This document shows, piece by piece, positions 9,100 to 11,495 of a DNA stretch of 64,000 nt. The notes beneath the pieces are model-generated. The model was not told the origin of the DNA and ran no database searches. It saw only the letters and a list, made by a program, of their open reading frames with translations. Origin of the DNA: Frankiales bacterium. GTDB taxonomy: Bacteria > Actinomycetota > Actinomycetes > Mycobacteriales > Geodermatophilaceae. How positions within the stretch are numbered: position 1 is the stretch's first letter; each line of letters starts with the position of its first letter. Both the position numbers and the translations under genes were made by a program. Location of the stretch: positions 367-64,366 of the forward strand of contig JAODNJ010000403.1 of assembly GCA_025465155.1 (NCBI GenBank), in the 5' to 3' direction.

Positions 9100-10038
9100 A
9101 TGCTCTTTGCGATCCTCACCGGGGTCGGGGGCGCGCTCATCGTGTTCCTCCTGGTCTTCCTGCTCTTCTCCCTGAGCGGTGCACCGAAGCGGCACAACGG
9201 CGGCCGCCCGGCGGCCTGGGCGCTCCGCCTCCGTGCCACCAGGACCGATTCGGTGGCCCGACTCGGCCCGATCGGCGCATTCACCCTCTTTCTGGGCGCC
9301 GGCGTATTCCTGACGGCCGCGGCCGGTATCGCTCTGGGTGAAGCGCTGTCCCGGCTCGAGGGCGTGGTGGACCGGCCGACCTTCCATTGGGTCGAGCGAG
9401 TGCAGGATCACGATCTGGCACAGCTGGTCGAGACCATCGGCCGGATGGGCAACCTTCCGCAGACCCGCGGGGCCGGGGCGCTGGCCGCGATCGGCCTCGT
9501 CCTCCTGGCCCGGGGCCGCCGGTGGGTCCCCCCGCTCCTCATCGGGTCGGTGATCATTGTGCAGAAGTACGCCCAGACCGGGCTCGCCAAGATCGTGGAT
9601 CGTGGTCACCCGCCCACCACACTGGGCACGTATCCGTCCGGCGGCTGCGCCCGAACCGTGGTGATCTACGGCACGATCATGTTCCTGCTGCTGTTCTACG
9701 CCCGGGCCGGCCGGCGGTGGCAGGGCGCCGGGTGGGCACTGATCGCCATGCTCGCGTTCATCGAGGGCTACACCAGGACCTATCTCAACAAGCACTGGGT
9801 GACGGACGTGCTGGGCGGCTGGGCCTTCGGGCTCATGCTGCTCGTGGTGGTGGTGTTCGCCGGAAGGGCGCTGCTCCCGTCCCGCGACGGCACCGCGCCG
9901 GAAGGCCCCGCGCCCGGTCAGGCGACCGGGCGCACCCAGCCCCCGGTCTCGAGCACCTCGACCACTGCGGCCACGGCCTCCTGCGGAGTCATCGCCGACG
10001 TGTCGATCACCAACTCGGCGTCCTCGGGTTCCTCGTAG
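9100..10038 (+). CDS. PAP2-superfamily membrane protein with atypical catalytic motifs
   Basis: Multi-TM; C1-like KIVDRGHP, C2-like YPSGG, C3 TRTYLNKHWVTD. ATG 9100 is in ORF 8956..10038. Confidence 0.75.
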   Translation: MLFAILTGVGGALIVFLLVFLLFSLSGAPKRHNGGRPAAWALRLRATRTDSVARLGPIGAFTLFLGAGVFLTAAAGIALGEALSRLEGVVDRPTFHWVERVQDHDLAQLVETIGRMGNLPQTRGAGALAAIGLVLLARGRRWVPPLLIGSVIIVQKYAQTGLAKIVDRGHPPTTLGTYPSGGCARTVVIYGTIMFLLLFYARAGRRWQGAGWALIAMLAFIEGYTRTYLNKHWVTDVLGGWAFGLMLLVVVVFAGRALLPSRDGTAPEGPAPGQATGRTQPPVSSTSTTAATASCGVIADVSITNSASSGSS

Positions 10039-11495
10039 GGGTCGGAGACGCCGGTGAACTCCGGGATGAGACCCGCGCGGGCCTTGGCATAGAGCCCTTT
10101 CCGGTCGCGGCGCTCGCACTCCTCCAACGGAGTGGCGACATGGACCAGAAGGAAGTCGCCGACGGCGGACACCATGCGCCGCACCTCCGAGCGGGTCGCC
10201 GCGTAGGGAGCGATGGGCGCGCAGATCGCCACGCCGCCGTGCCGCGTGATCTCGGCGGCCACGAAGCCGATGCGGCGGATGTTGAGGTCGCGGTCCATGC
10301 GGGAGAACGTGAGCCCGGCCGACAGCAGGCGCCGGACCACGTCGCCGTCGAGCAGGCTCACCGTGCGGGTGGTGTGCTCGGCCAGCGCGTCGGCGAGCCC
10401 CCGGGCGATGGTCGACTTGCCGGATCCCGACAGCCCGGTGAAGAACACGGTCACGCCCCTGCGGTGCCGGGGCGGCCGGGCCGCGCCGAGCTCCGCGGCG
10501 ACGGCCGGCGTGGTGAACCACTCGGGGATCGGGTCGCCGCGGTCCAGCATCTCCTCGATGTCCCGCGTGGTGAGCTCGATCCGGGCATGGTCCGGCTCGA
10601 TCTTGGCGATGGGCCGCCATACCTCCAGCACGGAGTCGTAGGCCCACGGTTCCGGCACGGCGAGGGGGATGGCGGTGCCTTCGATCTCGGTATCGGGGGC
10701 CCCGTCGTGGCGCTGCTCGAGCCCTTCCGAGGCGTCGGCGAACAAATGGGTCGCGCCGTAGGTCCTGGCGACGTAGGAACGGAGGCGCAGGTCCCTCACG
10801 GGATCCGTGCGCCTGGTCAGCGGCACCGGCACGATCTGGGTGCCCTCCGGGAGCTCTCGGCGCACCGCCAGCAGCGCGCGGACCAGCGCGTCGTCGTACT
10901 CGTCGGACAGCAGGGCCAGGATGAGCACCCGCACTCCGTCGCGCCCCGCGCCCGGCCGGGCGCCCACTCCGGCCGCAAGCCTCTCGGTCACCTGCCTGAG
11001 CTGGCCCAGCTGGCGCCGGTGCAGCGGTTCGCGTGCCGCCACCGCGAGTACGGCCGTGGGCGCCGGCGGCCGCGTTCCGTCCGGCAGCGGCTCGCCGGAG
11101 AAGTCGACCTCACTGGGGCGGCGGCGCAGGCTGCGGAACCTGCCGTGTGCGGGCTCGCGCACCGGCTGGACCGAGCCGGCGAGCCGGTGGGTGCCGGTCG
11201 CCGGGTCCTGCCAGGCCTCGCTGACGTGCAGGAGGGCAAGGGGCAGCCCCTCGGGGTCCTGCAGGACGAGCCGCTGTTCCTTGGCCAGCTCCTCCGGTAC
11301 GGTCAAAACGACCGGAACCGGCCACGGCGTGCCGTCCGCGAGCCGCCCGCCGGCGATCACGGCGGCGGTGTCGATCGAGCCGAGGAAGCCGTTGAGCGGC
11401 GCGAAGGCTCCGGACAGCAGGAGCTCGAGGTCGGCCAGCTCGACCGGGTCGGGCGTCCACGTGGGCAGGTCGGGAATGTTGGATTCGGCGGTCAC
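9918..11495 (-). CDS. cysC: Adenylyl-sulfate kinase fused to a degenerate ATP-sulfurylase (Sat)-like N-terminal region
   Basis: N-terminal [17 protein letters not shown] (Sat PUA-like). C-terminal APS kinase has [32 protein letters not shown] and [11 protein letters not shown]. Confidence 0.9.
   Translation of the reverse strand: [525 protein letters not shown]

Follow-up and report, generated by a model that had tools for sequence, protein, structure and literature searches.

The 64,000-nucleotide stretch analysed here (hereafter the window) belongs to contig JAODNJ010000403.1 of assembly GCA_025465155.1, filed as a Frankiales bacterium. It carries on the reverse strand a gene whose predicted product joins an ATP-sulfurylase-like (Sat-like) N-terminal half to a C-terminal adenosine 5'-phosphosulfate (APS) kinase, or CysC, half. 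The coordinates of its features are collected in Table 1. The open reading frame (ORF) has neither frameshifts nor internal stop codons. Its GTG start is found also in the homologous genes of four related loci (L001, L003, L004 and L005), and the N-terminus of the deduced protein agrees with that of its homologues. The host is a soil actinomycete, and the contig DNA was matched solely in soil-metagenome runs. Rfam, promoter and terminator scans around the kinase gene revealed no riboswitch and no promoter-like or terminator-like site.

Three Pfam domains are recognised along the protein, in the order PUA-like subdomain, degenerate ATP-sulfurylase core and APS kinase, and these domain calls lie far beyond chance. 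The APS kinase domain model TIGR00455 scores 178 bits, which is above its cutoff of 138.7.

Catalytic motifs of the two halves

One feature of the protein is the uneven preservation of its catalytic motifs, which we compared in an alignment with the live enzyme of Aquifex (PDB 2gks) and the dead protein of Thiobacillus denitrificans (PDB 3cr8). All four catalytic motifs of Sat (QxRNPxHxxH, HPxxGxxKxxD, GRDHAG and ISGTxxR) are degenerate in the window protein. The RNP loop reads WQARQPMHRAQ in T. denitrificans and VATREPLHRKQ in the consensus of the family to which the window protein belongs, while the HPxxG motif reads LLLHPQVGGDITEA (also given as LHPQVGGDITEA) in the former and VLVLPLLGGEHDES in the latter. 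At the GRD loop, T. denitrificans has FGCSLLIAGGEHQP (including IAGGEHQP) and the family consensus is YGATHLLAE, with FADASEG as the corresponding segment of the window protein. Finally, the mobile loop, ISGTEIR in Aquifex, is represented by LSGEEFQ in T. denitrificans, by LTPERLG in the family consensus and by LTTRDIE in the window. The C-terminal kinase domain retains intact Walker A, DGD, APS-binding and lid motifs, all of them invariant within the family. Taken at the level of sequence, this pattern supports a live APS kinase fused to a Sat-like domain that is predicted to be catalytically dead.

The original prediction had read the ORF in the same way, and our alignment bears it out: the four Sat motifs are lost and the kinase motifs, including the P-loop and LDGD, are kept. 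The motif positions also agree to within three bases, the RNP remnant exactly, the GRD remnant previously placed at about 10731-10760, and the P-loop, previously placed at 10411-10437, one base off. Two of the lost motifs, HPxxGxxKxxD and ISGTxxR, had not been part of that prediction, and they strengthen the interpretation of a dead domain.

Table 1. Positions of the two-domain APS kinase gene, its parts and its neighbours in the window, with truncated orthologues from other loci in the last row (aa, amino acids; CDS, coding sequence; -, reverse strand; +, forward strand).
Feature	Position	Strand	Remarks
Whole CDS, two-domain APS kinase (N-half Sat-like, C-half CysC)	9918..11495	-	525 aa
PUA-like subdomain, aa 8-96	11208..11474	-	Pfam PUA_2, 6.1e-20
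Degenerate ATP-sulfurylase core, aa 148-336	10488..11054	-	Weak match, Pfam PF01747, 2.9e-7, 30.6 bits
RNP loop remnant (QTRNPxHxxH), aa 153-162	11010..11039	-	N and final H lost
Clade-specific 16-aa insertion, aa 174-189	10929..10976	-	Absent in most of the family; low model confidence
HPxxGxxKxxD remnant, aa 190-202	10890..10928	-	G and K lost
GRD-loop motif remnant, aa 246-256	10728..10760	-	YGATH retained, GRD loop gone
Mobile-loop motif (ISGTxxR) remnant, aa 306-312	10560..10580	-	IELTTRD
APS kinase domain, aa 346-498	10002..10460	-	Pfam PF01583 APS_kinase, 6.6e-56
Walker A / P-loop GLSGSGKST, aa 354-362	10410..10436	-	Intact
LDGD, aa 382-385	10341..10352	-	Intact
Further kinase motif (19 residues)	10251..10307	-	Intact
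CAPIAPY kinase motif	10203..10223	-	Intact
Further kinase motif (26 residues)	10032..10109	-	Intact
Class I S-adenosylmethionine-dependent methyltransferase	11621..12463	-	Directly upstream, 125-bp gap; start approximate
PAP2-family phosphatase	8956..10038	+	Convergent, overlaps kinase 3' end by 121 bp; PF01569, 1.5e-8
DUF5122 beta-propeller	7652-8920	-	
GH26-like protein	6370-7530	-	
Wzy_C-related membrane protein	4818-6194	-	Homologous genes annotated Wzy_C in Thermomonospora
APH-like protein	3616-4860	-	
Carbohydrate-type sulfotransferase, 288 aa	2753..3619	-	PAPS-dependent; PF00685 Sulfotransfer_1, 1.6e-14
Chain-length-determinant-like protein	1300-2793	-	
Second Wzz-like (chain-length-determinant-like) gene		-	Runs off window start
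Truncated orthologues (Nonomuraea, Streptosporangium, Acrocarpospora)	L067:6016-7230, L069:5968-7212, L070		

A different view would be that the protein is a genuinely bifunctional 3'-phosphoadenosine 5'-phosphosulfate (PAPS) synthetase, combining Sat and CysC as in Aquifex, with a sulfurylase site that is divergent but still working. Its domain order and fold are those of Aquifex 2gks, it has kept the YGATH segment as well as two RNP-loop residues, R155 and H159, and the database labels of the family are in conflict: JGI/IMG names many members 'sulfate adenylyltransferase' and a few NCBI records call them bifunctional, while most of the named NCBI records say adenylyl-sulfate kinase. However, the Q, the N and the second His of QxRNPxHxxH are replaced, as are the His, Gly and Lys of HPxxGxxK and the entire GRDHAG loop and ISGTxxR motif. 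The NCBIfam model for the bifunctional Sat/APS kinase of the Aquifex type (NF004040) gives 421.2 bits, under its curated cutoff of 669. Moreover, the T. denitrificans protein retains more of the motifs (QARQPMH, LHPQVGG) and is nevertheless presented as inactive in the sources discussed below, and orthologues in the Streptosporangiaceae have deleted part of the core altogether. We consider a working sulfurylase site in the window protein very improbable.

Conservation and loss in the sulfurylase-like half

In the family, the 120 nearest homologues share about 62-82% identity with the window protein, and nearly all of them come from Actinomadura, Thermomonospora and Spirillospora. In every one (120/120), the four Sat motifs are gone and the P-loop and LDGD are preserved. 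The degenerate RNP loop has a fixed form of its own: 68 of the 120 read VATREPLHRKQ, and in 77 family sequences L158, H159 and R160 are invariant and R155 near-invariant. Mean column conservation across the 120 homologues is 0.87 in the N-half versus 0.92 in the kinase, and the ratio of nonsynonymous to synonymous substitutions (dN/dS; Nei-Gojobori, five gene pairs) is 0.26-0.34 versus 0.11-0.23, using the genes of the window, Thermomonospora, A. alba, A. madurae and Actinomadura sp. HBU206391. Because of these dN/dS values and this column conservation, we conclude that the dead domain is held by purifying selection within the family and is not decaying at random. Our literature search on an actinobacterial clade of dead-Sat APS kinases found no relevant work.

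In some family members (P0068, P0033 and P0104), loops of the dead domain contain tandem low-complexity insertions that are proline-rich or of the GRDA type, such as a threefold PPEGGRPPTPPVNKL. These insertions align to residues ~125-150 and ~228 of the window protein, which are positions that tolerate a change in length.

A wider picture was obtained with the N-half alone as query of an exhaustive search, which returned 1868 clusters at E < 1e-3, 437 of them at E < 1e-10. Among cluster representatives of at least 380 aa, most combine a dead Sat with a P-loop kinase, live forms are few, and the fungal type is represented at least once (P0250, with GNNTGYANA where the P-loop would be). A sample of named genomes sorted by motifs held 19 dead, 50 live and 8 intermediate forms, the 50 live ones carrying three or more of the four Sat motifs (nearly all with QTRNPxHRxH). 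Dead forms occur in the Actinomycetota (Streptosporangiaceae, Micromonospora, Luedemannella, Nonomuraea, Streptosporangium and Acrocarpospora) and also outside them, in Thiobacillus/Hydrogenophilales, Ectothiorhodospiraceae and several Desulfobacterota; live forms were found in Acidobacteriota, Rhodobacterales, Chloroflexota, Planctomycetota and others.

Across 25 dead-type proteins that are 34-73% identical to the window protein, no position of the RNP, HPxxG, GRD or ISGT motifs is invariant, and the kinase motifs are invariant throughout. The invariant columns of the N-half (G29, P33, L52, G55, L64, G83, A87, G107 and P127) lie mostly in the PUA-like subdomain, where T56, W58, P59, D80 and E82 are near-invariant as well, so that this subdomain is the best-conserved part of the N-half both in the family and in distant dead-type relatives. 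The original prediction had named a random, non-conserved decay pattern among homologues as evidence against an allosteric, oligomerising or channelling role of the Sat half, and the answer is divided: within the family the decayed sequence is conserved and under purifying selection, while no constraint is seen on the catalytic positions once the wider dead-type group is considered.

The Streptosporangiaceae orthologues (Table 1) go further. They are 404-414 aa long, still syntenic and adjoining mfd, and have deleted about 90 residues corresponding to residues ~254-340 of the window protein, namely the GRD and ISGT loops together with the linker helix. They are also without two residues of the RNP remnant (H159/R160), and Pfam recognises PUA_2 and APS_kinase only. 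This truncation takes the reduction of the dead domain one step further. Together these proteins form a natural reduction series, from live (Acidobacteriota, Rhodobacterales) through dead but full-length (Thermomonosporaceae, Micromonosporaceae) to partly deleted (Streptosporangiaceae).

Such a series raises the question of whether the N-half is evolutionary debris, a functionless remnant heading for loss. The catalytic motifs are indeed unconstrained across distant relatives, a sister family has already shed about 90 aa, and the linker between the subdomains contains variable low-complexity insertions. Against this stand dN/dS values far under 1, the mean column conservation of the N-half across the family, the absence of frameshifts and stop codons, and a PUA-like subdomain whose conservation extends across phyla and includes even the truncated orthologues. 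It is hard to reconcile these observations with a functionless domain, and we give this explanation hardly any weight.

Published relatives and the role of the inactive half

The best match among solved structures is 3cr8, the APS kinase of T. denitrificans (TdAPSK; Tbd_0210, UniProt Q3SM86), over residues 10-522 (E 2.2e-100). Next in rank come Aquifex 2gks, the ATP sulfurylases of Penicillium and 23vk, a 500-aa protein entered as 'adenylyl-sulfate kinase'. An AlphaFold monomer model with a mean confidence (pLDDT) of 69.6 and a predicted template modelling score (pTM) of 0.61, which served fold assignment alone, has 3cr8 as its top Foldseek match in the PDB (4.5e-29), and its N-half also matches Sat structures. 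The modelled kinase domain superposes on stand-alone APS kinases (5cb6) with a template modelling (TM) score of 0.86. On the strength of fold and motifs, the protein is assigned to the two-domain APS kinases with an inactive Sat-like domain, of which TdAPSK and the Entamoeba histolytica enzyme (EhAPSK) are published examples.

The APS kinase of T. denitrificans, a two-domain, hexameric enzyme, was reportedly described by Gay, Segel and Fisher in 2009. According to the title of that article, the name of the PDB entry and three citing papers, its ATP-sulfurylase-like (AS-like) domain is inactive, and the citing papers relate a proposal that this domain stabilises the hexamer. TdAPSK and the window protein share the PUA-like and Sat-like N-half and the CysC C-half in the same order, both have degenerate RNP and GRD motifs, and in both the final His of HxxH has become Gln. 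The kinase domains are 65% identical, but the N-halves just 27-37%. Further differences are that the T. denitrificans protein keeps the RNP-loop Q and HPxxG (LHPQVGG), neither of which is found in the window family, and that the window protein has the clade-specific insertion listed in Table 1. The hosts differ as well, a sulfur-oxidising betaproteobacterium in one case and a soil actinomycete in the other, and the T. denitrificans enzyme is a hexamer, whereas the window protein is known here from its sequence and a monomer model.

EhAPSK (PDB 23vk/23vl; Hatanaka et al. 2026, PMC13213808) has the same layout, an inactive AS-like domain N-terminal to an active APS kinase, and matches the window protein in sequence with E 8e-68. 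Its dead domain has lost substrate binding and boosts kinase activity by contacting the partner protomer's kinase domain; in its summary of the Thiobacillus AS-like domain, this paper calls it hexamer-stabilising (PMC13213808). EhAPSK is distinguished by being eukaryotic and mitosomal, by forming a flexible dimer rather than a hexamer, and by a shorter interdomain linker and the lack of a substrate-binding loop.

Two more distant relatives put these dead-domain enzymes in perspective. The bifunctional Sat/APS kinase of Aquifex aeolicus (2gks) resembles the window protein in domain order and fold (E 3.8e-74; kinase domain 51% identical), but has all four Sat motifs where the window protein has none. 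The fungal ATP sulfurylase (Penicillium chrysogenum, 1i2d/1m8p) is a homologous two-domain chain in the same order (E about 4e-70), and each of the two proteins has kept one dead half, which in the fungal enzyme serves regulation and assembly. What is swapped is the identity of that half: the fungal Sat is live and its kinase-like half is without a P-loop, the reverse of the window protein. The window protein had been called a mirror image of the fungal enzyme, and this stands as far as the reversal of dead and live halves goes; the arrangement is not new, however, as T. denitrificans and Entamoeba already have it. The same prediction had counted the Thiobacillus Sat-CysC protein among those with two working halves, which must be corrected, the T. 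denitrificans protein being, by the title, entry name and citing papers mentioned above, the published prototype of the dead-Sat/live-kinase layout. Going by these sources, this architecture has been known, crystallised and assayed since 2009, and the window gene is an ordinary member of it.

We therefore favour, with a probability of roughly 80%, a T. denitrificans-type two-domain APS kinase whose N-half is inactive and has been kept as a structural or activating module. The C-terminal CysC domain would phosphorylate APS to the sulfate donor PAPS. The N-half would keep the PUA-like and Rossmann-type ATP-sulfurylase fold and, with its sulfate- and ATP-binding residues lost, would make no APS, the supply of which would fall to an ATP sulfurylase, CysDN or Sat, with its gene beyond the window. 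The retained N-half would instead organise an oligomer, contact and activate the kinase domain, or do both. That the window protein lacks sulfurylase activity is suggested by its motifs together with the published homologues, and these homologues also point to the scaffold or kinase-activating role.

Of the roles put forward in the original prediction, oligomerisation has a precedent in the T. denitrificans hexamer, and activation of the kinase through interdomain contact has one in EhAPSK (PMC13213808). Channelling of APS is left without a basis, because the domain would make none. The remaining proposal was allostery, in which the dead domain would act as a sensor, tuning the kinase while its old active site still binds a ligand (APS, PAPS, sulfate or another nucleotide); functionally it would then be a true mirror of the regulatory, PAPS-binding domain of fungi. 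The conserved, degenerate RNP loop of the family and the purifying selection on the domain are what such a sensor would lead one to expect, and the dead domain of Entamoeba does alter kinase activity (PMC13213808). In Entamoeba, however, the pocket has lost substrate binding and regulation goes through interdomain contacts, not through a ligand (PMC13213808). Since the positions of the former active site vary in distant dead-type relatives, we prefer a scaffold or interdomain role to a conserved ligand site, and a ligand site is disfavoured also because the Streptosporangiaceae orthologues have deleted part of the core, including H159/R160 and the GRD/ISGT region. An allosteric sensor is in our judgement unlikely, although less so than a working sulfurylase or a functionless remnant.

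Some observations nevertheless weigh against a purely structural or activating module. Its inactivity is argued from motifs and from a relative with an N-half only 27-37% identical, as given above, and the quality of the AlphaFold model is moderate (pLDDT 69.6). In addition, the family conserves three residues of the old RNP loop (R155, H159 and R160), which may reflect residual binding of an anion or nucleotide.

Gene neighbourhood, sulfur supply and sulfation

The kinase gene is surrounded by housekeeping genes, and this neighbourhood, conserved throughout the family, comprises mfd, a SurA-like gene, mazG, a class A penicillin-binding protein, enolase and ppx. The methyltransferase gene is always found immediately upstream and on the same strand across the Thermomonosporaceae (53-74% identity). 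The convergent PAP2 gene has a weak match to the undecaprenyl-diphosphatase SepP; a 60% identical copy occupies the same place in A. alba, but Actinomadura sp. HBU206391 does not have the gene. The kinase gene of Thermomonospora and A. madurae is directly followed by a permease of the TauE/SafE family (L001:11585-12586, L002:11585-12586, L004:11625-12605); none is present in the window. Genes of the Wzz, Wzy or WecG type occur near the kinase gene in these organisms too.

Beyond the PAP2 gene, the reverse-strand genes between positions 1 and 8920 constitute a probable surface-glycan cluster, the product of which may be a sulfated polysaccharide. The Wzz and Wzy_C labels come from annotations on the homologous genes of loci L001-L005. 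In the PDB, the sulfotransferase finds its best relatives among heparan sulfate glucosamine 3-O-sulfotransferases (6.5e-19), enzymes that sulfate carbohydrates in a PAPS-dependent way. The ATG of the sulfotransferase gene overlaps the stop codon of the upstream gene (ATGA). The four genes from the Wzy-like to the first chain-length-determinant-like one overlap each other by 4-43 nt, and because of these overlaps they probably form one operon. A. alba and Actinomadura sp. HBU206391 share this arrangement, and their syntenic sulfotransferases are 82% identical to that of the window. A keyword-level literature search returned nothing on a sulfated cell-surface glycan in Thermomonosporaceae or on sulfated products of Actinomadura.

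From this gene context, we lean slightly towards the view that in the clade of the window PAPS feeds the carbohydrate sulfotransferase 6.3 kb away, for the sulfation of a surface glycan and not for cysteine synthesis. Two points count against it: the convergent PAP2 gene and four others lie between the sulfotransferase and the kinase gene, and no sulfotransferase occurs within 10 kb of the kinase in Thermomonospora or A. madurae, the sulfotransferase having been found next to the cluster in the window's clade only. The link between the kinase and glycan sulfation is circumstantial, and we propose it for that clade, not for the whole family.

A more speculative possibility builds on the same context. 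The dead domain, above all its strongly conserved PUA-like subdomain, might do more than serve as a scaffold and have a regulatory function specific to the lineage. By sensing a sulfur metabolite, or by docking a partner (the conserved methyltransferase encoded upstream, for instance, or the sulfotransferase machinery), it would couple PAPS supply to the synthesis of a sulfated cell-surface glycan in Thermomonosporaceae. We hold this to be unlikely. If it were true, the stepwise conversion of an enzyme into a regulator would be recorded in the live, dead and truncated forms that related actinomycete families possess.

The source of the APS would lie outside the window: Pfam scans of the whole 64 kb, with 51 ORFs supported by GC content at third codon positions (GC3), revealed no cysD, cysN, sat or cysH. 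The original prediction had CysDN in mind as the supplier elsewhere in the genome, and a separate stand-alone Sat is equally possible. A literature search on cysD and cysN of Actinomadura found no relevant work. Mycobacterium offers an analogy for the proposed role in sulfation, since PAPS is not known to serve any other purpose there. For that genus, APS is presented as the branch point towards cysteine in a published account (PMC4373884).

Other parts of the window contain further genes that touch on sulfur. An ABC transporter of the nitrate/sulfonate/taurine type (20326-23112, reverse strand) is made up of a permease, an ATPase and a binding protein of the NMT1/SsuA/TauA type, and it might have a bearing on the supply of sulfur. 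At 33792-37423 on the forward strand, a PALP and CBS-domain protein (cystathionine beta-synthase-like), the true start of which probably lies well inside its long ORF, is followed by a Cys/Met-metabolism pyridoxal-phosphate (PLP) enzyme, and the two resemble a reverse-transsulfuration pair. Unrelated features are a tRNA gene (30607-30680, forward strand), which is the sole Rfam match in the window, a set of MoxR AAA ATPase, DUF58 and VWA/BatA genes (47046-50109, reverse strand) and a second VWA and AAA pair (39217-43405).

These findings leave the current understanding of sulfate activation unchanged, and most of the named close relatives at NCBI are already correctly annotated. Where the Sat label is taken at face value, however, metabolic reconstructions would wrongly credit these actinomycetes with an extra ATP sulfurylase, and the same false assignment would apply to carriers of the dead type among the Desulfobacterota and sulfur oxidisers. 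For the biology of Actinomadura-like soil bacteria, the sulfotransferase and the Wzy/Wzz-like genes point to an uncharacterised sulfated surface glycan.

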